From an uncultured Bacteroidota bacterium (GTDB taxonomy: Bacteria; Bacteroidota; Bacteroidia; UKL13-3): DNA of 64,000 nt. Where the stretch lies: assembly GCA_903850915.1 (NCBI GenBank), contig CAINMV010000009.1:64599-128598 (forward strand), in the 5' to 3' direction. Positions within the stretch are counted from its first letter, which is position 1, and each line of letters starts with the position of its first letter. Under the pieces are notes generated by a model. It saw only the letters and a list, made by a program, of their open reading frames with translations. It had not been told where the DNA came from and did not search any database. Shown piece after piece: positions 8,569 through 24,706 of this stretch. The position numbers and the translations under genes are program-made.

Positions 8569-9426
8569 TTATACTTGGTAATTGTGGTGGAAATTCACCA
8601 ACTCTTTGATTGGAGACCGCAAAATCGATCCAACTTTCATGTGGTATTTGTTTTCACTTAGGTCTATGAGTATATCTTTAAAGCTATACGCTACGCTACC
8701 GATACAGTTGAAGCTGTGCTTGCTGTAGTTAGGGTAATGCGATACAAGATTTTTAAAGAAATCATCAAATGACTCCCGAACGATTCCATGGATATATTCG
8801 TATGAATCGTGTTCAGAGGCAAAGCTGCAGAAGCTAGCTAACGTTCTATTTGGGAAAGGTTTGGAATAAAGGTCAGAAAAAATCTGTTCATTATCGGTGT
8901 AGCCATATTTTTCACGAAAACTCTTGTCTAGTGTTTCAGGAAAATAGCCGCGCATAAAATCGCGTAGGAGCTTTCTGCCGATATAAGAACCGCTGCCTTC
9001 GTCGCCTAATAGGTATCCAAGTGAGTCTATATTATGAGTGATAACATAGCCGTCGTACAAACAGGTATTCGCTCCTGTACCGATTATAGCGGCAAATCCA
9101 CTTTCACGTTTTAGTAACGCTCTTGCCGCAGCGAGTAAATCGTGTGTTACTAGAATTTTTGTGTTGGGAAAGTTCTCCGCCATCGCGAGTTCTACGATAT
9201 GGTTTTTTTCGGGGGTGCTGCATCCGGCCCCATAAAAATAGATATGGGATATTTCATCAGGTTTCACCTGGTTTAATAACTGCTTTTTTAAGGATTCGGA
9301 AATCTGTTCTTTCGTCCAAAAATAGGGGTTATAACCCTCGGTTCTATATTCAGCCAAGGTTATTTTATTCTCATCGACCAGCGACCATGCTGTTTTGGTT
9401 GAGCCACCATCCGCGATTAATATCAT
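8569..9426 (-). CDS. BadF/BadG/BcrA/BcrD-type ATPase, N-acetylglucosamine kinase-like
   Basis: 285 aa. N-terminal LIADGGSTKTAW sugar-kinase/ASKHA phosphate-1 motif, GTGAN motif. Confidence 0.6.
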   Translation of the reverse strand: MILIADGGSTKTAWSLVDENKITLAEYRTEGYNPYFWTKEQISESLKKQLLNQVKPDEISHIYFYGAGCSTPEKNHIVELAMAENFPNTKILVTHDLLAAARALLKRESGFAAIIGTGANTCLYDGYVITHNIDSLGYLLGDEGSGSYIGRKLLRDFMRGYFPETLDKSFREKYGYTDNEQIFSDLYSKPFPNRTLASFCSFASEHDSYEYIHGIVRESFDDFFKNLVSHYPNYSKHSFNCIGSVAYSFKDILIDLSENKYHMKVGSILRSPIKELVNFHHNYQV

Positions 9427-11990: not shown

Positions 11991-13127
11991 ATGAAAGTAG
12001 CATTAATTACAGGCGTTACAGGGCAAGACGGAGCCTATTTGTCAGAATTTCTTTTGAATAAAGGTTATATGGTTCATGGCATAAAGCGTCGTTCATCTCT
12101 AATTAACACCGACCGAATTGATCATTTGTATTTAGATCCTCACGAAAAAAATGTAAGATTCAAAATGCACTATGGCGACCTAACCGACAGTACGAACCTC
12201 ATACGTATAATTCAAGAGGTGCAGCCAGATGAGATTTACAATTTAGCAGCGATGAGCCATGTGCATGTTAGTTTTGAAACTCCTGAATATACTGCAAACG
12301 CTGATGGAATAGGCACACTAAGGATACTTGAGGCCGTTCGGATTTTAGGTTTGACAGCTAAAACACGTATTTATCAAGCTTCAACCTCTGAATTGTATGG
12401 CTTGGTTCAGGCTGTTCCTCAAAGTGAAACCACACCGTTTTACCCGCGAAGTCCTTATGCAGTGGCAAAAATTTATGGCTATTGGATTACGGTAAATTAC
12501 AGGGAAGCCTATGGAATGTATGCCTGCAATGGAATATTATTTAATCATGAGTCGCCAATACGAGGGGAGACTTTTGTTACACGGAAAATTACACGTGCAG
12601 CTGCCCGCATTGTTTTGGGCATGCAGGACAAGGTATATCTCGGAAACCTAAGCGCAAGACGTGACTGGGGTCATGCAAAAGACTATATTGAAGCGATGTA
12701 TTTGATTCTGCAGCAAGAAAAAGCAGAAGATTTTGTAATTGCGACTGGAATAACAACTCCGGTTCGAGAATTTATACGAATGGCGTTTCATGATATTGGT
12801 GTAACGGTAGATTTTAAAGGGGAAAATGAACACGAGGTAGGTGTGATAACATCCATCGACAGGGCTCGTTTGGAGTTTCTTGAGCTTCAGGATGCTCCTG
12901 TTAAATTGAATCAAGAGGTGGTGGCGGTAGATAAAAGATATTATCGCCCAACGGAAGTGGATTTGCTCGTTGGCGATCCAACAAAGGCCCAGACTAAGTT
13001 AGGATGGAAGCCGAAATATGATTTAAAAATGTTGGTGAACGATATGATGAAAGGTGATTTAAAGCTGATGAAGAAGGAGCTGTTTTTAAAAGAACATGGC
13101 TTTAAAACATTAAATTACTTTGAATAG
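11991..13127 (+). CDS. gmd: GDP-mannose 4,6-dehydratase
   Basis: [22 protein letters not shown]..., SDR extended family, 378 aa. Confidence 0.9.
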
Positions 13128-13130
13128 TTT

Positions 13131-14066
13131 TTGCGCGTAATGGAAAAAAACTCGAAAATTTATATTGCTGGTCATCGAGGGATGGTAGGAAGTGCTGTTC
13201 AACGCAAGTTGGAGTCGGAAGGATTTCACAATTTTGTTAGTCGCACATCCGCGGAACTCGACCTCCGTAATCAACATGCTGTTGCTGATTTTTTTAATTC
13301 TGAAAAGCCTGAGTACGTTTTTCTGGCTGCAGCAAAGGTGGGAGGTATTTTAGCGAATAATAGCTTTCGTGCCGATTTTATTTATGAGAATCTTATGATT
13401 GAATCGAATATCATCCATCAAAGCTATTTGCATGGAGTGAAGAAGCTTATGTTTTTTGGGTCATCATGTATATATCCGCGCATGGCACCTCAGCCAATTA
13501 AAGAAGAATACCTATTGTCTGGGTATCTCGAACATACCAATGAACCCTATGCGATTGCGAAAATTGCCGGAATAAAAATGTGTGATGCCTATCGAGATCA
13601 ATATCAATGTAATTTTATAAGTGTAATGCCAACGAACCTGTATGGTTTAAATGACAATTACCATCCAGAGAATTCTCATGTGATGCCTGCGCTAATTCGT
13701 CGAATACATGAAGCAAAGGAAAATAATTTTCCGGAGGTTTTAGTTTGGGGCAGTGGCTCTCCATTGCGTGAGTTTTTAAACGCAGATGACTTAGCTGACG
13801 CTTGTTTTTTACTTATGCAAAACTACAATGAAGCTGGACTTATTAACATCGGAAGTGGCGAGGATTTGAGTATTAAATCCTTGGCACTGTTAATTCAAGA
13901 AGTGATCGGATATAAAGGGGTATTGTCTTTTGATACAACTAAACCAGATGGGACACCTCGAAAATTGATGGACCATGCGCGTCTCGCTGACTTGGGCTGG
14001 AAACCAAAAATTTCACTCGCAGATGGTATTGCAATAGCCTATGCTGATTTTTTAAAGAAAAAATAA
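13131..14066 (+). CDS. fcl: GDP-L-fucose synthase (GDP-4-keto-6-deoxymannose 3,5-epimerase/4-reductase)
   Basis: [13 protein letters not shown]...[11 protein letters not shown]. Starts 4 bp after gmd stop (operon). Confidence 0.85.
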
Positions 14067-14135: not shown

Positions 14136-15290
14136 ATGAAATCTAAATTTTACCTGTTTTTCCTGTCTGCTTTTATTATTGCAGCCTGCTCCAGTGGCAA
14201 GAAAGCCTATAAACATGGCCAATACGATAATGCTGTTTATCAATCGGTAAATCGTTTGAAAAGCAAGCCATCACACCAAAAAGCAACAGCAATACTTCGT
14301 GATGCATATCCTATGGCGGTGCAGTACCATCAGGATAGAATTAAAACGATGCTTATAAGTAATGACAACGCTCGTTATGAAAATATCGTTACTGAATATC
14401 AGGCGCTAAATAATCTTTACGACCAAATTCAATTGTGCCCAGCGGCGAAAAAGCTTGTGATTACCCAACGCTATACTGCAGAGTTGAATGATGCAAAGGT
14501 TAAGGCTGCAGAGCTTCACTATGCGCTTGGTCAAAAGTACCTCGACAAAAAGAATAAGAACGACGCAAAGATTGCCTACAATGAGTTTGAAAGAGCATCA
14601 CAACTTATGCAAGGGAATTACAAGGATTGCGACGCAAAGATGAGAGAAGCAATGGATTGGGCAATAACGAAGGTTATCGTGTTGCCTGTTGAAGTTCATA
14701 GCAATAGCTTAAAAATGAGTAACGACTATTTCCAAAATAAAATAGTGCAGTATTTGTATGAACATAAGTTGAGTAAATTTGTTATGTTCTATAGTGAAGC
14801 AGAGGCAAATAATACTAAGATTCGAGTTGATGAAATATTAGATCTAAGCTTTGATGATTTTGTTGTAGGGCAATTAACTACAGATAGATTGCAACGCGAA
14901 GTGACCAACGATTCTGTTTTGGTTGGTGAAACGAAGGTGTCGCTTCCTGGTGCGAAAACAGATACTATAATTAAAGTTTATGGTAAAGCAAAAGCTACGC
15001 TTTTTGTTACTAAAAGAACTATTGAAAGTAAAGGTGTGCTCGACATGAAGATTATTGACAAATATTCAAATGCAGTTTTACAAGAAGAAAAGATGCCCGG
15101 TATTTACATTTGGACAAATCAGTTTGGATATTACCAAGGCGATGTAAAGGCTTTGAAGGCAGAAGATTTGGAACTAACTAAAGGTAAAGAATTACAGCCA
15201 CCTCCTCCACAGGATTTTTTTGTGGCATTCACACAGCCAATCTTTAATCAACTTATCGGAAGAATAACGCAACGTTATAGCGGGTATTAG
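14136..15290 (+). CDS. lipoprotein of unknown function
   Basis: Signal peptide with lipobox (FIIAACSS), 384 aa, no recognised domain. Sits immediately upstream of the MoxR module. Confidence 0.4.
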   Translation: MKSKFYLFFLSAFIIAACSSGKKAYKHGQYDNAVYQSVNRLKSKPSHQKATAILRDAYPMAVQYHQDRIKTMLISNDNARYENIVTEYQALNNLYDQIQLCPAAKKLVITQRYTAELNDAKVKAAELHYALGQKYLDKKNKNDAKIAYNEFERASQLMQGNYKDCDAKMREAMDWAITKVIVLPVEVHSNSLKMSNDYFQNKIVQYLYEHKLSKFVMFYSEAEANNTKIRVDEILDLSFDDFVVGQLTTDRLQREVTNDSVLVGETKVSLPGAKTDTIIKVYGKAKATLFVTKRTIESKGVLDMKIIDKYSNAVLQEEKMPGIYIWTNQFGYYQGDVKALKAEDLELTKGKELQPPPPQDFFVAFTQPIFNQLIGRITQRYSGY

Positions 15291-15402
15291 TGGAATCAGT
15301 AATTTTGCACAATTTGAAATCGCGTAGTTTTTTGTGGGTTTTATTAAGTTTATGGTTAAATTAACTCAATTAATTTAATTCGTTGGTCTATATTGCAATC
15401 TC

Positions 15403-16371
15403 ATGCGGGAAGCAGTTTTTTTAAAACAAAATCAAGAAAAATGGCAGTTGCTTGAGCAGCAGATGAATAATCATGAGGCGAGCGCCGATGAATTAGCAGA
15501 GCTATATATTAAAGTTACGGATGACTTAGCCTATGCTCGCACTTTTTATCCGGATAGTCAATCTTTGCAATATCTAAATTCCTTAGCTGTAAAAATACAC
15601 AGTAAAGTTTATCGAAATAAAAAAGAAAAGGTGAGCCGCTTAATTACTTTTTGGCAAAGTGAGTTGCCTGAAGTTATTTATCGTCATCGTTTTAAAATGT
15701 TGTTTTCCCTAGTTGTTTTTGTTTTAGCAACTGGTATTGGTGTTGTTAGCGCCGCGAATGACAATCAATTCGTGCGCTTGATTTTGGGTGATACCTATGT
15801 TGATATGACCATCAACAATATCAAAGAAGGGAAACCTATGGATGTTTATGGGCATACCAATGAAGGTGATATGTTTTTTTACATTGCATTTAATAATATT
15901 CAGGTGTCATTTATGCAGTTTGTAACAGGAATAACAGCTTGCGTTTATACCCTTATAATAGAAATGCAAAACGCAATTATGCTTGGCGCATTCCAGGTTT
16001 TCTTTTATAAATACAGGTTGCTTACAACATCAATTCTTGCCATTTGGATCCATGGCACATTAGAGATTTCGGCTATTATAATAGCCTGTGGCGCTGGCTT
16101 TGTCTTTGGTTCCGGACTTCTTTTTCCAGGCACTTATCGTCGTCGCGATTCTTTTTTGTCTGGCGCAAAAGATGGTATAAAGATTGTCATCGGCTTGGTA
16201 CCTATTTTTCTTTTTGCTGCCTTTTTGGAGAGCTTCATTACTCGACATTATCAGCTTTTGGCGTATTGGTCGTTGTCTTTTATTATACCTTCATTAGGTT
16301 TCGTAATTTGGTATTTTGTTTTTTATCCTTTTAAATTATATCATGGTGGAACAAAAAAAGAAATATATTGA
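15403..16371 (+). CDS. stage II sporulation protein M-like (DUF95) integral membrane protein
   Basis: N-terminus MREAVFLKQNQEKWQLLEQ...LAELYIKVTDDL typical of Bacteroidetes SpoIIM-family. Multiple TM helices in the C-terminal half. Confidence 0.6.
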   Translation: MREAVFLKQNQEKWQLLEQQMNNHEASADELAELYIKVTDDLAYARTFYPDSQSLQYLNSLAVKIHSKVYRNKKEKVSRLITFWQSELPEVIYRHRFKMLFSLVVFVLATGIGVVSAANDNQFVRLILGDTYVDMTINNIKEGKPMDVYGHTNEGDMFFYIAFNNIQVSFMQFVTGITACVYTLIIEMQNAIMLGAFQVFFYKYRLLTTSILAIWIHGTLEISAIIIACGAGFVFGSGLLFPGTYRRRDSFLSGAKDGIKIVIGLVPIFLFAAFLESFITRHYQLLAYWSLSFIIPSLGFVIWYFVFYPFKLYHGGTKKEIY

Positions 16372-17365
16372 GTTAAGGCAACAACGCGACTTTGGACAGA
16401 TCATAAGTACGACTTTTGATTTTTTATTTTCAAATTTCGCGAGTTTTTTTAAAACTGTTTTTGCTATTACAGGAGTTGCTTTTGTGCTTTCGATGGCAGT
16501 ACTTTCGCTTTGGATTTATAAGTTTTTTGGCTCATTATTACAGGGTACTCGAAACTATTCCCGTTATTCTGGCGCATCAAATTCCATTGAAAATATTTTA
16601 GATGGATATAATTTAGCGTATTTAATTGTTGGATTTGCGATCTTGTTGGTGGCTGTAATGCTTACTTATATAACCATTTATTGTTATATGAAAATATATG
16701 TTCGACTTGGCCGAATTGAAGAAATAAGTATTAGTCAGGTTTGGTTTGAAGTGAAAAGTAATTTCTTACGTTACTTAGCTGCCGGTTTCTTGTATTCTGT
16801 TTTCTTAATTGTGTTTTATGCAATTGTAATGTTTTCAATTACCTTAAGTGGTTTTGTTTTTACGTTTCTGATGTTTGGATTCATCGCCGTGGTCTATTAT
16901 TTTTATTTGTACTTCAACGTCGTAATTAATGAAGAAGAGATGCGTATTATTGATGCCTTTTCTCGTTCTTTTAATCTTGTGAAGGGTCATTGGTGGCTTA
17001 CTTTTGGAGTTTATTTCGTGTCTTATCTACTTTGCTATGTGGTAACTTTATTACTTGGCCTTGCTGCAACTGTAGCTGGTAGTGCAGCCTCTACCTTATT
17101 TGATATGCGAGATGTTCAATTTCTACTTTGGCCATTAGGTATAAGTGTCTCGGTACTAGGAGTGATATATGTTTATATGGTTTTTTGTTTTTTTATCATT
17201 AAAAACTGTGTGCTCTACTATAGCCTTGTTGAGTCAAAGGATAATACTGGACTACTGCAAAAAATACAAGCAATCTCGAATTCTACGAATGAAGGGAATA
17301 ATGAAGTGAAGATAGAGCGTAACAATCAACAATATTCTAATGACGAACCTGAAGAAGAATTTTAA
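16343..17365 (+). CDS. polytopic membrane protein, unknown function
   Basis: About 6-7 hydrophobic helices. Start probably MVEQKKK (16343), overlapping the upstream gene by ~29 bp. No RDD motif found. Confidence 0.45.
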   Translation: MVEQKKKYIELRQQRDFGQIISTTFDFLFSNFASFFKTVFAITGVAFVLSMAVLSLWIYKFFGSLLQGTRNYSRYSGASNSIENILDGYNLAYLIVGFAILLVAVMLTYITIYCYMKIYVRLGRIEEISISQVWFEVKSNFLRYLAAGFLYSVFLIVFYAIVMFSITLSGFVFTFLMFGFIAVVYYFYLYFNVVINEEEMRIIDAFSRSFNLVKGHWWLTFGVYFVSYLLCYVVTLLLGLAATVAGSAASTLFDMRDVQFLLWPLGISVSVLGVIYVYMVFCFFIIKNCVLYYSLVESKDNTGLLQKIQAISNSTNEGNNEVKIERNNQQYSNDEPEEEF

Positions 17366-18143
17366 GTTTTTTTTGTTCGTTTCCCTAGCCTTTCTTAGTC
17401 ATGGGCTATTTGCCTGGACTGTAGATACTTCCCTCTTGAGTTTTAATATTCTCGATTTGGACAGCGCTCATCAACGGCAAGATTTCGCTAGAATTGATTT
17501 TTGCAATTGTAACGGCAATCAATTTGCCCCGATGGTTGCTAGGAGGGATGTTAACATTAGCGTATTGGAAAAATTTAGGTCAAAGCCAGAATTTCAATAC
17601 GAGCGAACTATAAAAGATGAGGCGACTTCCTTTTGGTCGAGTTTCTGGTCGTGGTTGGCTAAGAAATTGTTTGGTAATATTTCTGAAGACAACACGAATG
17701 AATCGCGCAATTTTGTGTTTTGGTTAATCGGCATTTTCTTTACCATCCTTGTAAGCTATTGGCTATACAAAAGCGATTTTCTCGGTTCACCCATGCGCCG
17801 CACAGCTAAAATAGATCAAGGCCTTTTTGAAGAAATAGGCCGATCTGATGAGGATATTGAAAGTCAAATTATGAGTGCTCTTGTTCAACGTGATTATCCA
17901 CTTGCAATTCGATGGGTTTATATCAAATGTATTAAGAATCTTGCCGATGAAAATGAAATAGAAATACAGCAAAACAAAACCAATTACGATTATATACTAG
18001 AAATAAAAAGCTACGACCAACGTGTCTCCTTTTCCGAGCTTACCCGCTTATACGAATTCACGAACTATGGTCGCTTCACTACCAATGAAGACCATTATCA
18101 AAAGGCGCAATCAATTTCTAAAGCCATGTTAAATAAAAGATAA
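17340..18143 (+). CDS. DUF4129-like protein (N-terminal signal/TM, one internal TM, C-terminal alpha domain)
   Basis: 267 aa. Start overlaps the upstream gene by ~26 bp. Architecture and neighbourhood match DUF4129 partners of MoxR/DUF58. Confidence 0.45.
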   Translation: MTNLKKNFKFFLFVSLAFLSHGLFAWTVDTSLLSFNILDLDSAHQRQDFARIDFCNCNGNQFAPMVARRDVNISVLEKFRSKPEFQYERTIKDEATSFWSSFWSWLAKKLFGNISEDNTNESRNFVFWLIGIFFTILVSYWLYKSDFLGSPMRRTAKIDQGLFEEIGRSDEDIESQIMSALVQRDYPLAIRWVYIKCIKNLADENEIEIQQNKTNYDYILEIKSYDQRVSFSELTRLYEFTNYGRFTTNEDHYQKAQSISKAMLNKR

Positions 18144-19373
18144 ATGAAATCGAATAAGAAATTTCTTTTACTTATCGGTGCGGTGTTTTTGCTCCTTTTT
18201 TGGATTGAGTCGAGTCAACCTAAGCCCATCGATTGGAGCCCAGGTTTTAGTAAAGATGAAAAAAAGCCCTTAGGCGATTATCTGCTTTTTGAAATGTTGC
18301 CTGCGATATTTAATGGTCAAAACATTCAAAGTGTAAATAAAAACATTATTGACCAGCTTGATGAAGATAAACTTCAAAACTCCAAGGATATTAATTATAT
18401 CTTTGTTAATGATGTAGTTGATTTTAATGAATACGAAGCTACACGTCTATTAGATTTTGTGCAACAAGGGCATCATGTTTTTATCGCTTCATCTAGCTTT
18501 TCAGACACACTGCTTTCCTTGTTGGCTTTAAAACAGATGTCTATTTATGAGGGCGAAGCTTTTTTATATGCAACGTCTATTAAAGATTCCTTATTTCATT
18601 TTAACTTTTGTGATAATATAAAAACAATCGATACAGGGTATGCAATTTCTAAAGAATTCTCTTCTGTAAGTTATTACTTTGATTCGATACAAGGTCAGAA
18701 GAAAATGCTTGCTGCAGACACATTGCATCATTGCGTTTTGACAGAAATAAAATATGGTAAAGGCCATGTTATTTTATGCACTCTACCGCACGCCTTTACT
18801 AATTATTATATTTTAAAGCCAAGTAATCTTGATTTTATCCTTCAAACGCTAACACGAATGCCTTTGCAAACTGTTTGGTGGGACGAGCATTATAAATCAG
18901 GAAGAGCAAAAGATACACCATTACGTTATATCTTGGATAATAGTAGTTTGAAATGGGCCTATTATCTTATGTTAATTGGATTGATGCTTTTTGTTTTATT
19001 TATGGGTAAGCGCCGTCAACGTATTATCCCTCGTTTGGATCCCATGAAAAACACTTCATTAGAATTTGCAGAAACCATTGGACAGGTGTATTATGAGAAG
19101 GGAGACCACATCAATTTAGCACAAAAAAAAGTAAATTATTTCAAAGAGTACCTTCGTGCTAAATACATGCTTAATTTAACCCAATACCCTCATCGGAATT
19201 CAACTGATTTCCTTGTTAACTTAAGTAACAAAACAGGAAGGTCTGTTTCAGAGTTAAAGACGCTATTTGAATATATTTCCTACATTGAGAACACCTTAGA
19301 CATTAATGAAAAAGAATTAATATATCTAAATACACTTATTGAACGATTTAAATCACCCAGCAAAAGCAATTAA
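18144..19373 (+). CDS. DUF4350-like membrane-anchored protein
   Basis: 409 aa. N-terminal TM, second TM (YYLMLIGLMLFVLFMG). ATG directly abuts the upstream TAA. Family assignment is by architecture and context. Confidence 0.4.
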   Translation: MKSNKKFLLLIGAVFLLLFWIESSQPKPIDWSPGFSKDEKKPLGDYLLFEMLPAIFNGQNIQSVNKNIIDQLDEDKLQNSKDINYIFVNDVVDFNEYEATRLLDFVQQGHHVFIASSSFSDTLLSLLALKQMSIYEGEAFLYATSIKDSLFHFNFCDNIKTIDTGYAISKEFSSVSYYFDSIQGQKKMLAADTLHHCVLTEIKYGKGHVILCTLPHAFTNYYILKPSNLDFILQTLTRMPLQTVWWDEHYKSGRAKDTPLRYILDNSSLKWAYYLMLIGLMLFVLFMGKRRQRIIPRLDPMKNTSLEFAETIGQVYYEKGDHINLAQKKVNYFKEYLRAKYMLNLTQYPHRNSTDFLVNLSNKTGRSVSELKTLFEYISYIENTLDINEKELIYLNTLIERFKSPSKSN

Positions 19374-19387
19374 AAAGTAAATTATAT

Positions 19388-20362
19388 ATGACAAACGAAT
19401 TTAATTCTCGCATTGACTTGTCGCCACTTCATCAAGGCGTTCAGCGTTTACGAAGTGAGCTACAAAAAGTTGTAGTAGGCCAACATGCACTAATTGACAA
19501 TCTTATTGTAAGTGTTTTAAGTAATGGCCATGCACTTATCGAAGGTGTACCAGGTGTTGCTAAAACATTATCCGCTAAGTTGCTTGCACATAGTATTTCA
19601 TCGGGGTTTTCCCGCATCCAATTCACCCCCGATTTAATGCCATCAGATATTTTGGGTACCTCTGTTTTTAATCAAAAAACCACGGAATTTGAATTTAAAC
19701 AGGGACCTATTTTTTCTAATTTGATATTAATTGATGAGATCAATAGAGCTCCTGCTAAAACCCAAGCCGCACTTTTTGAGGTGATGGAAGAACGACAGAT
19801 AACGCTAGATGGAAGGCAATATAATATGCAGCTTCCTTTTTTGGTTTTTGCAACGCAAAATCCAATTGAACAAGAGGGCACCTATCGCTTGCCTGAAGCC
19901 CAGCTAGATCGTTTTATGATGAAGATTGAAGTGGCTTATCCTACAGATCAAGAAGAGCTTTTAATTTTAAAAAGTCATCACACGCGAACCAACAACAATC
20001 CTTTGGCAGGTATTGAGCGTGTTATTTCTGGACAGGAAGTTCTTGAATATCAGCATCTCGTTCGTCAAGTACATGCTGAAGAATCTTTACTGCAATATAT
20101 TACTGCGATAGTAACGCAAACTCGAAATTTTTCTGGTTTATATCTTGGAGCTTCACCAAGGGCATCTTTTTGGTTATTGCAGGCTGCCAAAGCAAAAGCC
20201 GCTATAGCAGGGCGCGATTTCATTACACCTGACGATGTTCAACATATGGCCTTTCCTGTCCTTCGGCACCGCATAATGCTTACTCCAGACAAAGAGATGG
20301 AGGGATCCAACACTAACGAGGTTATAAAACAGATTCTTGAAAAAATTGAGGTGCCTAGATAA
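19388..20362 (+). CDS. MoxR-family AAA+ ATPase
   Basis: Walker A GVPGVAKT, MoxR hallmark FSRIQFTPDLMPSDILG, Walker B LILIDEINRA, 324 aa. Confidence 0.9.
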   Translation: MTNEFNSRIDLSPLHQGVQRLRSELQKVVVGQHALIDNLIVSVLSNGHALIEGVPGVAKTLSAKLLAHSISSGFSRIQFTPDLMPSDILGTSVFNQKTTEFEFKQGPIFSNLILIDEINRAPAKTQAALFEVMEERQITLDGRQYNMQLPFLVFATQNPIEQEGTYRLPEAQLDRFMMKIEVAYPTDQEELLILKSHHTRTNNNPLAGIERVISGQEVLEYQHLVRQVHAEESLLQYITAIVTQTRNFSGLYLGASPRASFWLLQAAKAKAAIAGRDFITPDDVQHMAFPVLRHRIMLTPDKEMEGSNTNEVIKQILEKIEVPR

Positions 20363-21700
20363 ATGATACAGCGGTTTTTTTCTTCATTGTATTTGAGCTC
20401 CCGCTTTTTTATTGCGGTTGGAATTTTATCGACGTTTTTTCTAGGAAGTTACTTTTTTTCTGTGACATTTGTTTTGGTAAAAACGATATTTAATTTAATC
20501 ATATTGCTTTTTGCTATTGATATTTTAATGTTGTTTAAAACCTCACATGCAATAGATGCAAAAAGGATAGCATCAGATAAGCTATCCAATGGAGATGATA
20601 ATGCATTTACAATTGAGCTTTTTAATCGTTATCCATTTACTGTGATGGTACGAATTTATGATGAACTTCCTCCTCAATTTCAATTACGCGACAACTATTT
20701 TCAGCGCAATGCGCCTGCAAAAAGTACCATCTTTATTAATTATAGCCTCCGTCCATTAAAACGAGGTGTTTACAATTTCGGGGCATTGAATGTTTTTGCG
20801 CATACTTTTATTGGGCTCGCAGTAAGGCGTTACCGACTCGATAATGATAGGAATATGCCTGTGTATCCCTCATTTATTCAAATGCGCAAATACGAGTTTT
20901 TGGCGATTCACAATCGATTACAAATGGCTGGAATCAAGAAGATAAGGCGGCTAGGAAATAATCAAGAATTTGAGCAAATAAAAGAATATGTGCAAGGCGA
21001 TGATTATCGAACAATCAACTGGAAAGCTACTGCTAGAAAGGGTATGTTTATGGTTAACCAATATCAAGATGAACGTTCGCAGAATGTTTATTGCATCATC
21101 GATAAAGGACGAATGATGAAGATGCCTTTCGAAAAGCTTTCCTTGCTAGACTATAGTATTAATGCTGCATTGGCATTAAGTAATATCGCGATACGCAAGT
21201 CGGATAAGGCCGGTATAGTTACGTTTAATGAAAATAAAATTCAGGTTTTAAAAGCAGAAGGACGCAATAGTCAAATGATGAGAATCGCTGATTTGTTGTA
21301 TCAACAAAAAACCAGATATCTAGAAAGCAACTATGAAGCGCTTTATGTTCAAATGCGACATCTAATAAGTCATCGTAGTTTATGTTTGTTGTTCACCAAC
21401 TTCGAAAGTTATAGTAGTATGCAACGCAATCTAAAATCCCTGATAGGTATTTCCAAACATCATACTTTGGTCGTGGTTTTTTTTGAAAACACCGAAATAG
21501 AAAAGCTGCTAAAGGAACCGGCGCATACATCAGAGGATATTTACATTCAGACGATAGCGGAGAAGTTTGCCTACGAGAAGAAGCAAATCGTTTTGGAGCT
21601 TCAACTTCATGGTATTCATAGCATATTAACCGCACCGCAGCATCTAACCGTTAATACTGTTAATAAGTACTTGGAATTAAAATCACGTTGTGTGATTTAG
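20363..21700 (+). CDS. DUF58 domain protein (VWA-like MoxR partner)
   Basis: DUF58 hallmark EFEQIKEYVQGDDYRTINWKATAR, N-terminal TM helices, 445 aa. ATG abuts the MoxR stop. Confidence 0.85.
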   Translation: MIQRFFSSLYLSSRFFIAVGILSTFFLGSYFFSVTFVLVKTIFNLIILLFAIDILMLFKTSHAIDAKRIASDKLSNGDDNAFTIELFNRYPFTVMVRIYDELPPQFQLRDNYFQRNAPAKSTIFINYSLRPLKRGVYNFGALNVFAHTFIGLAVRRYRLDNDRNMPVYPSFIQMRKYEFLAIHNRLQMAGIKKIRRLGNNQEFEQIKEYVQGDDYRTINWKATARKGMFMVNQYQDERSQNVYCIIDKGRMMKMPFEKLSLLDYSINAALALSNIAIRKSDKAGIVTFNENKIQVLKAEGRNSQMMRIADLLYQQKTRYLESNYEALYVQMRHLISHRSLCLLFTNFESYSSMQRNLKSLIGISKHHTLVVVFFENTEIEKLLKEPAHTSEDIYIQTIAEKFAYEKKQIVLELQLHGIHSILTAPQHLTVNTVNKYLELKSRCVI

Positions 21701-21760
21701 CCGTTTTGTCTCAAAAATCCTTAATATTGGAACTATCAATATCTGTATTAATTTTGCACT

Positions 21761-22648
21761 ATGAAATATTTAAAAACCAAAGATAATTTTTTAAGCATTC
21801 CAGATGAGAAGCACTATAGTTACAAAGATTCAAAATATGTAATACAGCAGGTGCCTTATGAATACACATCAAGCTATTTGGCTGGAAGTGAGAAAGGACC
21901 AAAAGCGATTGTAGGTGCCTCTCAATTTGTTGAACTTTATGACGAAGAACTCGATCAGGAAAGCTATTTAAAAGGTGGTATCTGTACCCTTCCTCCATTA
22001 AACTTTAAACATAAAACCGATAAAAAAGCGGTTGATTATATCGCAGAGGAAACCGCGAAACTCCTTGATGACGGAAAGTTTGTGGTAAGCATTGGTGCAG
22101 AACATACAGTTACGGCTGGCTTTGTGCGACCATTCGCAAAGAAATATAAAAATTTAACCGTATTGCAAATTGATGCCCATAGCGACCTTCGTGAGAGTTA
22201 TCATAATAACAAATACTCTCATGCTAGTGCAATGGCACGTGTTCGCGATGAAAAGGTGAATTTGGTTCAAGTAGGTATTCGTGCACAGTGTATTGAGGAG
22301 AGTGAAGTTATAAAAAAATCCAAAGACATTCACACGTTTTACGCTCACCAAATCCGTGAAAATGCAAAATGGATTGAAGAGGTATTGAAAGCCTGCACCA
22401 AAGATGTTTATATTACCATCGATGCCGATGGTTTTGATCCAAGTGTAATCCCTGCAGTTGGAACTGCCGAGCCTAATGGCTTAATGTATAACGAAGGGGT
22501 GAATTTGTTGAAGAGGATTATTGCAACGAAGAATGTGGTTGGGTTTGACGTGGTGGAATGTGCTCCAATTAAAGGAAGTATATTAAGTGAATATACGCTT
22601 GCTAAGTTGATTTATAAAATGATAGGCTACATTACAATTAAGAAATGA
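21761..22648 (+). CDS. arginase-family hydrolase, agmatinase-like
   Basis: GAEHTV, IDAHSDLR, ITIDADGFDP metal-binding motifs of the ureohydrolase fold. Confidence 0.6.
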   Translation: MKYLKTKDNFLSIPDEKHYSYKDSKYVIQQVPYEYTSSYLAGSEKGPKAIVGASQFVELYDEELDQESYLKGGICTLPPLNFKHKTDKKAVDYIAEETAKLLDDGKFVVSIGAEHTVTAGFVRPFAKKYKNLTVLQIDAHSDLRESYHNNKYSHASAMARVRDEKVNLVQVGIRAQCIEESEVIKKSKDIHTFYAHQIRENAKWIEEVLKACTKDVYITIDADGFDPSVIPAVGTAEPNGLMYNEGVNLLKRIIATKNVVGFDVVECAPIKGSILSEYTLAKLIYKMIGYITIKK

Positions 22649-23100
22649 CAAAAATAAAAAAAGGCGATAAGGCCCCTAATTTTAAGGCAAAAAACCAAAA
22701 TGGAGAGTGGGTAAGCTTATCTGATTTTAAGGGGAAAAAATTAGTGCTTTATTTTTATCCTAAAGCAAATACGCCAACATGCACGGTTGAAAGTTGTAAT
22801 TTAAGCGACAACCACCAGCTACTGCAAAAGGCAGGCTATGCCGTTTTGGGTGTGAGTGCCGATAGTGAAAAGCAGCAACTTAACTTTAAAAATAAATTTA
22901 AATTCCCGTTCGATCTGCTTGCCGACGAAAATCAAGAAGTGATTAAAGCTTACGATGTATGGGCCGAAAAAAGTACGTTTGGTAAGACTTACATGGGTTT
23001 GGTAAGGACCACATTTATAATTAATGAGTTAGGTAAGATAGAGGAGGTAATAGATAAGGTGGAATCAAAAAATCATGCCCAACAAATTTTAAGTCTTTAA
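22645..23100 (+). CDS. bcp: thiol peroxidase Bcp (peroxiredoxin Q)
   Basis: LVLYFYPKANTPTCTVESC with resolving Cys. 4-bp overlap with the upstream gene. Confidence 0.85.
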   Translation: MTKIKKGDKAPNFKAKNQNGEWVSLSDFKGKKLVLYFYPKANTPTCTVESCNLSDNHQLLQKAGYAVLGVSADSEKQQLNFKNKFKFPFDLLADENQEVIKAYDVWAEKSTFGKTYMGLVRTTFIINELGKIEEVIDKVESKNHAQQILSL

Positions 23101-23875: not shown

Positions 23876-24706
23876 TTATTTATTTTTTTCGTGATAATAT
23901 GATGCTGCCTTACGAACATTACCAAATTCATTAAGCAAATTTGAGGCCTCTTCCTCTTGGATTTTTAGCTCCTGCATTAGCATTTCCACGCCACGTCGGA
24001 TGAGTTTTTTATTGCTAAGATGCATATCCACCATCTTATTGTCTTTAACATGGCCAAGTTGTATCATCACGCTGGTGCTAATCATATTCAAGATTAACTT
24101 TTGGGCAGTACCCGCTTTCATTCGTGTACTTCCAGTCACAAATTCAGGCCCTACTACACATTCGATTCTAAAGTCGGATTCGGCCGCTACTGCGCTCTTT
24201 TTATTACATACAATACAGGCGGTAGTAATTTTTTTTGTTCTGCATTGTTTCAGGGCCGCAGCAACATAAGGGGTGCCACCGCTCGCCGCAATACCTACCA
24301 CAACATCTTTATTCGTAATTTTATGTTGTTTCAAATCCTTAAATCCTTGGTTGCGATTATCTTCTGCGAATTCAACAGCTTGTCGTATCGCGCTATCGCC
24401 GCCAGCAATAATTCCTATTACCTTGCCATGTGGAATGCCGTATGTAGGGGGGCATTCACTTGCGTCTACAATTCCTAATCGTCCACTGGTGCCAGCACCG
24501 ATATAAAATAAGCGTCCTCCGCTATTCATCTGTTGCACAATTTTTTTAACTAGATTTTCAATGGCAGGAATGCATTTCGCTACTGCAAGTGGAACAGATT
24601 GATCTTCATGATTTATCGATTTCAGCAGTTTTTTTACAGACATCTTTTCGAGATGATTGTAGTGGGAGCTTTTTTCTGTTGATAGGGTAATAGAATCTTT
24701 CTTCAT
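23876..24706 (-). CDS. murQ: N-acetylmuramic acid 6-phosphate etherase
   Basis: SIS domain GRLFYIGAGTSGRLG...ECPPTYG. Confidence 0.8.
   Translation of the reverse strand: MKKDSITLSTEKSSHYNHLEKMSVKKLLKSINHEDQSVPLAVAKCIPAIENLVKKIVQQMNSGGRLFYIGAGTSGRLGIVDASECPPTYGIPHGKVIGIIAGGDSAIRQAVEFAEDNRNQGFKDLKQHKITNKDVVVGIAASGGTPYVAAALKQCRTKKITTACIVCNKKSAVAAESDFRIECVVGPEFVTGSTRMKAGTAQKLILNMISTSVMIQLGHVKDNKMVDMHLSNKKLIRRGVEMLMQELKIQEEEASNLLNEFGNVRKAASYYHEKNK

Follow-up and report, generated by a model that had tools for sequence, protein, structure and literature searches.

In a 64,000-nucleotide stretch of DNA from an uncultured Bacteroidota bacterium (contig CAINMV010000009.1, positions 64,599 to 128,598; the whole stretch is called the window below), six genes on the + strand between window positions 15403 and 21700 are one real operon. 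Genes for the same six families, namely SpoIIM, a polytopic membrane protein, DUF4129, DUF4350, MoxR and DUF58, stand in identical order on one strand in 57 of 66 related loci, which excludes a chance juxtaposition of unrelated genes. By analogy with known MoxR pairs, we lean towards a reading in which the inner-membrane proteins of the operon are remodeled or assembled by a MoxR-DUF58 motor tethered to the membrane. The cluster to which this operon belongs is widespread, already noticed and uncharacterized, and the window is a further instance of it. The six genes are as follows (lengths in amino acids, aa; values in brackets are E-values).

15403 to 16371, + strand: SpoIIM/DUF95-family polytopic membrane protein, 322 aa (PF01944, 2.9e-34)
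16343 or 16316 to 17365, + strand: membrane protein with six transmembrane (TM) helices by hydropathy, 340 aa from ATG or 349 aa from TTG (no family match)
17340 to 18143, + strand: bitopic DUF4129 protein, 267 aa (PF13559, 5.9e-5, residues 199-257)
18144 to 19373, + strand: DUF4350 protein, 409 aa (DUF4350 Pfam family, 5.9e-13)
19388 to 20362, + strand: MoxR-proper AAA+ ATPase, 324 aa, soluble (AAA_3, 1.5e-62; AAA_lid_2, 3.4e-21)
20363 to 21700, + strand: DUF58 protein, 445 aa (DUF58 Pfam family, 1.4e-18)

Operon structure and conservation

The six open reading frames (ORFs) follow one another in series in the ORF list of the window, with junctions, in gene order and with gene 2 read from the ATG at 16343, of -29, -26, 0 (TAA-ATG), +14 and 0 (TAA-ATG) bp, the last being the abutment of MoxR and DUF58 at 20362/20363. 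If gene 2 instead starts at the upstream TTG at 16316, the first junction becomes -56 bp. Gene calls made independently on metagenome contigs from this species comprise the same six products (322, 340, 267, 409, 324 and 445 aa) and take ATG 16343 as the start of gene 2, leaving TTG 16316 as the alternative. Both the ORF coordinates and these gene calls agree with the tight same-strand coupling, junction sizes included, that had been described for this DNA in an initial annotation. The domain calls made there for SpoIIM, DUF4129, DUF4350, MoxR and DUF58 are all upheld by Pfam, in the case of DUF4129 by way of its orthologues, and an NCBIfam scan added nothing specific for the operon proteins.

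For the survey of related loci, one genome per GTDB species was scanned with an alignment of six DUF4350 sequences as the query, which gave 215 confirmed relatives and 80 loci that were kept. The window and two distant loci supplied the sequences for one hidden Markov model (HMM) per family, with which all ORFs of all loci were searched, and gene order was counted in the 66 loci with sufficient sequence on both sides. The loci of identical order span Bacteroidota, Ignavibacteriota, Calditrichota and KSB1, and a metagenome-assembled genome (MAG) labelled Chlorobiales has the same arrangement; the carriers within Bacteroidota belong to the Cytophagales, Sphingobacteriales, Chitinophagales, Bacteroidales and unclassified Bacteroidia. 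The neighborhood had been proposed to recur in Bacteroidota, and it is indeed conserved there, but it is not confined to that phylum, as it also occurs in the other lineages just named and on alphaproteobacterial plasmids. Median gaps between the genes in orthologous loci are -17, +2, -4, +11 and 0 bp. Median identity between the window protein and its orthologues is highest for MoxR (61%) and DUF58 (52%), followed by SpoIIM (49%, n=69), DUF4350 (33%), DUF4129 (27%) and the polytopic protein (26%). The module is split in loci L001, L014, L017, L021, L028, L030, L043, L054, L070, L076 and L079, some of which have the DUF4129-DUF4350 pair alone and others the four membrane genes with no MoxR-DUF58 beside them; in L001, DUF4350 is followed instead by a CBM9 gene and by genes for sulfatases.

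In other loci the module normally has a regular seventh member, a gene for a membrane protein of the RDD family (PF06271), which adjoins it in 58 of the 66 loci and is detected by the RDD HMM in 61 loci. This gene is divergent and located upstream of SpoIIM in Bacteroidota (49 loci), and it is the last gene of the operon, overlapping the DUF58 stop, in Ignavibacteriota, Calditrichota and KSB1 (9 loci). The same HMM found no RDD ORF in the 64-kb window and none near the module in its closest relatives, L004 to L006; an RDD gene may lie elsewhere in this genome. The description of the operon as a six-gene module stands for all six of its genes, while the module as it normally occurs elsewhere is larger by the RDD gene.

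The MoxR-DUF58 pair

Judged by its motifs, gene 5 encodes an intact MoxR-proper (MRP) ATPase, for which a hexameric assembly and ATPase activity are predicted. Walker A (GVPGVAKT), Walker B (LILIDEINR), sensor 1 (ATQNP), the arginine finger (LPEAQLDRF) and sensor 2 (GASPRAS) are all intact, and every catalytic motif is at least 90% conserved across 65 orthologues. The hallmark motif RIQFTPDLMPSDILG and the DUF58 motif GDDYRTINWKATAR, both quoted in the initial annotation, are present and likewise at least 90% conserved among orthologues, and its call of a bona fide MoxR is borne out by the AAA_3 and AAA_lid_2 matches. The nearest solved structure is 2R44 (E=1.2e-83), which we considered as the MoxR orthologue of this cluster and rejected: its identity, as read from the alignment, is about 50%, compared with 57-80% for true orthologues, and it carries a 9-residue insertion and reads GASTRAA where MoxR has GASPRAS. 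2R44 is probably a paralogue of the cluster MoxR.

The DUF58 protein begins with an N-terminal TM hairpin, which is followed by 393 soluble residues (per hydropathy) comprising a beta-sandwich (residues 64-168), a signature linker (approximately 186-237) and a vWA-fold domain (241-441). The nearest structural neighbors of the vWA fold are NorD and BatB, and PDB searches with DUF58, as a single sequence and as a profile, gave no significant match. [quoted passage not shown] Residues D247, G249, M252 and N346 and also an Arg are invariant among 40 Bacteroidota sequences, and D-x-G-x-x-M is found even in the DUF58 proteins of the alphaproteobacterial clusters, at 21% overall identity. By its modeled fold DUF58 is the vWA-type partner of MoxR in this operon, and its MIDAS is conserved though non-canonical. 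Conservation in the protein is highest at the signature GDDxRxINWKATAR (GDDYRTINWKATAR) with its flanks (residues 186-237, window positions 20918-21073), and the signature is invariant even against those same alphaproteobacterial homologues. This stretch is also the sole region of the AlphaFold2 monomer model with a predicted local distance difference test (pLDDT) value below 50.

The membrane proteins of the operon

The product of gene 1 matches the PF01944 profile over its full length, and per hydropathy and the positive-inside rule it consists of an N-terminal soluble domain of about 98 aa and five to six TM helices; PF28475 (DUF8413) is also present at the N-terminus of its orthologues. 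Sequence searches of the PDB with this protein and with the DUF4350 protein gave no significant match. The six-TM protein encoded by gene 2, which carries an acidic C-terminal tail and in loci of the Fibrobacterota-Chlorobiota-Bacteroidota (FCB) group always lies between SpoIIM and DUF4129, has no Pfam or NCBIfam match and few relatives. Because its relatives at 23-30% identity, L084 among them, weakly match PF10110, PF06790, PF25231 or DUF4013, it is no orphan and belongs, distantly, to a loose GPDPase_memb/UPF0259/DUF4013-like group of six-TM proteins as a divergent member.

The DUF4129 match of gene 3 scores 23.5 bits, slightly below the cut-off of 24.8 bits, which orthologues exceed. Hydropathy gives this protein an N-terminal TM segment or signal, about 96 aa outside the membrane, a second TM segment and a C-terminal DUF4129 domain of about 124 aa, which we place in the cytoplasm. 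An exhaustive search found 3,476 clusters (at 50% identity) that match the protein at E<=1e-3. All of the top 150 matches share its architecture of 220-320 aa and are stand-alone proteins, no fusions (e.g., to a transglutaminase) being found among them. A transglutaminase fusion is known in TgpA-type proteins.

The DUF4350 protein, per hydropathy and the positive-inside rule, has an N-terminal TM segment or signal anchor, an ectodomain of about 245-247 aa, a TM segment and a cytoplasmic helical-bundle tail of about 120-122 aa, which opens with a near-invariant KRRQRIIP...NTSLEF. The fold of the ectodomain is flavodoxin-like, of the GATase1-like/GIFT type, and resembles that of GldG/IFT52; its predicted location would put a GIFT domain outside the cytoplasmic membrane. 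Since no Cys or His in the ectodomain is conserved at 80% or more across 83 sequences, so that a Cys-His-Glu amidotransferase triad is lacking, the ectodomain is non-catalytic, like GIFT domains. The idea that the DUF4350 tail, the DUF4129 tail and the N-terminal domain of SpoIIM are homologous docking modules was rejected, as the hhalign probabilities are at most 1.2%.

Counterparts in other lineages and in known systems

A tblastn search of annotated plasmids revealed a counterpart in Alphaproteobacteria, in which DUF805, a DUF4129-like protein, a protein in the DUF4350 position, MoxR, DUF58, SpoIIM and RDD are encoded in this order by overlapping genes on one strand (Paracoccus aminovorans p_II, OH746_RS20800-20830; Rhizobium sp. 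N6212, AMK01_RS24925-24955; many Rhizobium replicons). The Pfam E-values of the DUF4129-like proteins are 0.025 and 0.0014, and DUF4350 is Pfam-confirmed in Rhizobium only (4.3e-8), the Paracoccus protein at that position having no Pfam match. These operons are like that of the window in that the DUF4129-like gene precedes DUF4350 and in that DUF58 has D-x-G-x-x-M in place of DxSxS; they differ in having DUF805 instead of the GPDPase_memb-like six-TM protein and in having an RDD gene, whereas the window has none. The slot of the six-TM protein is held by one or two DUF805 proteins (4051-4491 in L087; 3666-4765 in L088). The position of SpoIIM also varies, as it is first in the operon of the window, comes after DUF58 in Alphaproteobacteria and lies on the opposite strand in Mycobacterium tuberculosis.

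In mycobacteria, genes annotated as DUF4350, MoxR, DUF58, SpoIIM and RDD are linked in Rv3689-Rv3695, the MoxR2 locus (PMC8191103). RNA-seq in Mycobacterium chelonae shows that the orthologues of Rv3695 to Rv3689 (RDD, SpoIIM, DUF58, MoxR and DUF4350 plus a membrane protein) change together, the cluster being strongly down-regulated as a block in double lysogens (PMC8191103). In M. tuberculosis, Rv3694c (SpoIIM-type) and Rv3695 (RDD-type) co-purify with the divisome protein Rv0954 (PMC8093794), and in Mycobacterium bovis bacille Calmette-Guérin (BCG) Rv3691 is upregulated in slow growth and required for it (PMC2685279).

Part of the neighborhood had been described in 2015 by Makarova, Galperin and Koonin (PMC5898192, sections 3.2 and 3.3 and Table 2). 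Their DUF4350 family (arCOG01314) is found in archaea "and several bacteria", accompanied by MoxR and by a protein of the Ig+vWA type; a secretion or membrane-remodeling complex is predicted for the archaeal neighborhood, with MoxR proposed as its assembly or regulation factor (section 3.2, Table 2), and bacterial SpoIIM homologues are noted beside vWA and COG0714 genes (section 3.3). Archaeal arCOG01314 and the DUF4350 protein of the window share an anchor, a GldG-like flavodoxin-fold ectodomain and a C-terminal TM segment, and both systems have MoxR (COG0714); the archaeal protein with a beta-sandwich and a C-terminal vWA domain, moreover, has the architecture modeled for DUF58 here. The window protein differs in its additional conserved cytoplasmic tail. 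Archaeal neighborhoods add S-layer-like/Ig-domain membrane proteins (arCOG02884, COG4743/PF07760), for which there is no Pfam match here, and SpoIIM, DUF4129, RDD and the polytopic protein are not listed as archaeal parts in the same sections and table. The literature searched, in which the coverage of subscription journals is incomplete, held no functional study of the cluster. Within that coverage, the initial annotation was right that no biochemical function has been assigned; the neighborhood itself is partly described in sections 3.2 and 3.3 of the 2015 paper.

Comparison with the Bat (Bacteroides aerotolerance) operon shows a shared core, as in both an MRP-type MoxR (AAA_3) is directly followed by DUF58. 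The pair lies at the 3' end in the window operon and at the 5' end in Bat, however, and its partners here are SpoIIM, DUF4129, DUF4350 and the polytopic protein; a Pfam scan of the six operon proteins and the upstream lipoprotein found no BatA/BatB protein (TM+VWA), TPR-type BatC, BatD or BatE, which upholds the distinction from BatA-E drawn earlier. With respect to NorQ-NorD, NorQ is in a different MoxR subfamily, and NorD is soluble and binds NorB by way of an intact MIDAS; DUF58, by contrast, is anchored in the membrane, its MIDAS is degenerate, and no metalloenzyme target is evident for the window operon. Gene 1 shares its family, PF01944, with SpoIIM from the DMP engulfment complex of Bacillus and with the DUF95 proteins of circular-bacteriocin clusters. 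In both of these known contexts the protein is polytopic and works on the outer side of the membrane as a scaffold or processing factor, per section 3.3 of PMC5898192. The window operon has no SpoIID/SpoIIP or bacteriocin precursor genes, the host is a non-sporulating member of the Bacteroidota, and the orthologues of gene 1 have an N-terminal cytoplasmic domain (DUF8413) that is extra relative to Bacillus SpoIIM.

Proposed mechanism and alternatives

That the operon might be a membrane-complex assembly or remodeling system had been suggested before, and we adopt this as the favored explanation, on the strength of four co-encoded membrane proteins beside an intact MoxR and of the analogy with the MoxR/vWA pairs NorQ-NorD, CbbQ-CbbO and RavA-ViaA. 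In NorQD, a finger of the VWA protein enters the AAA+ pore, the C-terminus of NorD touches the ring, and a linker is twisted by the hydrolysis of ATP, remodeling the membrane target (PMC9976466, PMC13036017). By this analogy, a MoxR hexamer would dock on the cytoplasmic vWA part of DUF58, itself anchored to the membrane via its hairpin, with the 186-237 segment around GDDxRxINWKATAR as the candidate element that engages MoxR. ATP hydrolysis would then pull or twist DUF58, and the force would be relayed to the cytoplasmic tails of DUF4350 and DUF4129 and the N-terminal domain of the SpoIIM-like protein, which are the likely handles. A complex would thereby be assembled, gated or reset, altering the state of the polytopic partners and the action of the outward-facing GIFT domain in the envelope. 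The observations above establish which parts there are, how they fold, how far they are conserved and that they are linked; all contacts, the membrane side assigned to DUF58 and the direction in which the motor would act are inferred.

Several observations weigh against this model. Membrane genes that lack a neighboring MoxR-DUF58 pair are seen in about 10 of 73 loci; five loci hold only the DUF4129-DUF4350 pair, and five or six have membrane genes without adjacent MoxR-DUF58. Because of these split loci, the motor may be dispensable or encoded elsewhere. The degenerate MIDAS, which has no serines and in the FCB group also lacks the beta4 Asp, cannot support NorD-type metal-bridged target binding, and since it is degenerate yet conserved, with an invariant Arg, target recognition by DUF58 must differ from that by NorD. 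It is the positive-inside rule only that puts the vWA domain of DUF58 in the cytoplasm, and the archaeal Ig+vWA protein is judged probably secreted by Makarova et al. (PMC5898192). The hints at a role in the envelope, moreover, are weak and partly lineage-specific.

Our best guess is nevertheless that the system has a role in the cell envelope, in glycan or peptidoglycan handling or in the assembly or export of envelope proteins, rather than in cytoplasmic chaperoning. SpoIIM scaffolds peptidoglycan hydrolases in Bacillus, and GIFT domains occur in GldG and OST48; both facts hint weakly in this direction. The co-purification of Rv3694c and Rv3695 with Rv0954, the need for Rv3691 in slow growth and the synteny with MurQ/BadF-type genes (see below) are weak hints as well. 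A bolder version of the proposal, which we regard as doubtful though worth stating, is that DUF4129, DUF4350, MoxR, DUF58 and SpoIIM, with or without RDD, make up an ancient AAA+-driven envelope machine unlike any system for secretion, assembly or stress that has been described. Here a vWA adaptor that is tethered to the membrane and lacks a MIDAS would link the hydrolysis of ATP in the cytoplasm with a GIFT domain facing outward. The gene set would, just as tentatively, be common to FCB-group bacteria, Alphaproteobacteria and Actinobacteria and in part to Archaea.

Other explanations were weighed against remodeling of the co-encoded proteins. The operon could encode a novel protein secretion system, in which the membrane proteins form a conduit that is assembled or energized by MoxR-DUF58. 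Makarova, Galperin and Koonin made the same proposal for the archaeal DUF4350 neighborhood (PMC5898192), and the GldG/IFT52-like fold of DUF4350 and the predominance of membrane proteins among the components fit it. We nonetheless find it unlikely: the operon comes with no conserved candidate cargo, outer-membrane component or pore-forming family, the archaeal S-layer/Ig-domain partners are absent here, the flanking genes vary by lineage, and MoxR-class ATPases are known as remodelers and not as translocases. About equally improbable is a stress-tolerance module equivalent to Bat, in which MoxR-DUF58 would look after proteins of the membrane or periplasm during stress (oxidative, heat or slow-growth), with clients or cofactors as the products of the other genes. 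Bat operons do have the MoxR-DUF58 pair, Bat/MoxR mutants of Riemerella and Francisella are stress-sensitive (PMC11834572), and both the slow-growth role of Rv3691 in BCG (PMC2685279) and the block down-regulation in M. chelonae (PMC8191103) are in line with such a function. The MoxR-DUF58 pair is all that is held in common, however, as no BatA/BatB, BatC, BatD or BatE genes are present, and a partner set that is wholly different and as strictly co-inherited as the motor argues for a dedicated complex over general clients.

A cofactor- or metal-insertion chaperone for an enzyme encoded elsewhere, comparable to NorQD, CoxDEF, CbbQO or the Mg/Co chelatases and with the membrane proteins as docking scaffolds, seems to us very unlikely. 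The usual task of a MoxR/VWA pair is to activate a specific enzyme (PMC13036017, PMC9976466), and NorD's VWA domain is among the nearest structural neighbors of that of DUF58, but the MIDAS residues essential to NorD are replaced in DUF58, no enzyme gene is consistently linked across the 80 loci, and DUF58 is membrane-anchored, with what we count as five non-enzymatic membrane partners. Hardly credible, finally, is a role in anti-phage defense or conflict as a MoxR-vWA system of the "ternary" kind, a reading that we grouped with the chance juxtaposition dealt with above. MoxR does give weak matches to PF20030 (bpMoxR, 6.7e-10) and to DolB in PADLOC (5.6e-6), yet bpMoxR scores 38.8 bits to the 209.7 bits of AAA_3, no other operon protein matches PADLOC, there is no beta-propeller or effector gene, and the distribution is chromosomal and housekeeping-like with conserved flanking synteny. 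With only the weak DolB match on MoxR and no effector gene, the defense reading was rejected.

Operon boundaries and flanking genes

The gap before gene 1 is 112 bp and that after gene 6 is 60 bp. Two features lie immediately upstream of the operon.

14136 to 15290, + strand: orphan lipoprotein, 384 aa, with a lipobox-like signal ending in ...IIAAC
15291 to 15402, + strand: intergenic region of 112 bp and candidate promoter; its -7 element, TAATTTTG at 15300-15307, is of the Bacteroidetes type

The lipoprotein had been put forward as a possible part of the unit, and we exclude it because no homologue is found in any of the 82 related loci, the closest relatives included; the gap with its -7 box TAATTTTG also intervenes. 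It has no Pfam, NCBIfam or PADLOC match above threshold (TPR_2 is sub-threshold, E=0.097). The gene occurs at the same position on the same-species contigs L085 and L086. The motif TANNTTTG begins at 15300, and the 12-mer GTAATTTTGCAC, which contains the Bacteroidetes-type -7 box TAnnTTTG, is found in both gaps flanking the operon, at 15298-15309 and 21747-21758. Since the + strand of the AT-rich 64-kb window has 47 copies of the -7 motif, the repeated box is weak support for the limits of the transcription unit. The downstream copy of GTAATTTTGCAC stops 2 bp short of the ATG at 21761, which, if this copy is a promoter, would imply a leaderless transcript or one with a very short leader. Scans for sigma-70 promoters and terminators gave nothing exceeding shuffled expectation.

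The genes that flank the module differ between lineages. A MurQ-like SIS-domain etherase (23876-24706, - strand) is located 5.7 kb downstream and a BadF/BcrAD-type sugar kinase (8569-9426, - strand) 9.6 kb upstream, and both recur near the module in approximately 30 loci, this window included. The two are mutually adjacent in Cytophagales, just upstream of the RDD gene, and the pair is absent in Sphingobacteriales, Chitinophagales, Ignavibacteriota and others. We take this neighborhood to be probably inherited synteny, split here by rearrangement, and at most a weak hint of a link to cell-wall recycling. An M19-like gene (~420 aa, a lipoprotein-type membrane dipeptidase by motif only) lies between the divergent RDD gene and SpoIIM in loci ranging from L019 to L083. 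As an extra component of the module it was rejected, being a lineage-specific insert in approximately 22-30 loci, mostly of Cytophagales or unclassified Bacteroidota MAGs. Downstream of the operon, at 21761-23100 on the + strand, are two genes that overlap by 4 bp, one of the arginase family (295 aa, PF00491) and one for a peroxiredoxin of the Bcp/AhpC type (151 aa); in L004 and L005, which are among the closest relatives, the module is followed by ORFs alike in size and position. The lipoprotein gene is directly preceded by two epimerase/dehydratase-family genes (11991-14066, + strand), whose products resemble GDP-mannose 4,6-dehydratase and GDP-fucose synthase (in L085, PF16363 and PF01370).

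Significance

As one more instance of its cluster, the window holds no further new biology and is notable only for the absence of a nearby RDD gene. What is gained is a revised list of parts, in which DUF58 is the vWA partner and its MIDAS is conserved but non-canonical, RDD is the regular seventh member and the lipoprotein is left out, together with a topology model. To our knowledge, MoxR proteins are among the least understood AAA+ families, with few known clients (NorQD, CbbQO, RavA-ViaA and CoxD). In hundreds of species, operons of this type encode a motor next to its vWA adaptor and to probable clients, the set of which is fixed, and with genetically tractable carriers such as Pedobacter, Prevotella, Rhizobium and mycobacteria they would offer a good system in which to study the action of MoxR-DUF58 at the membrane.

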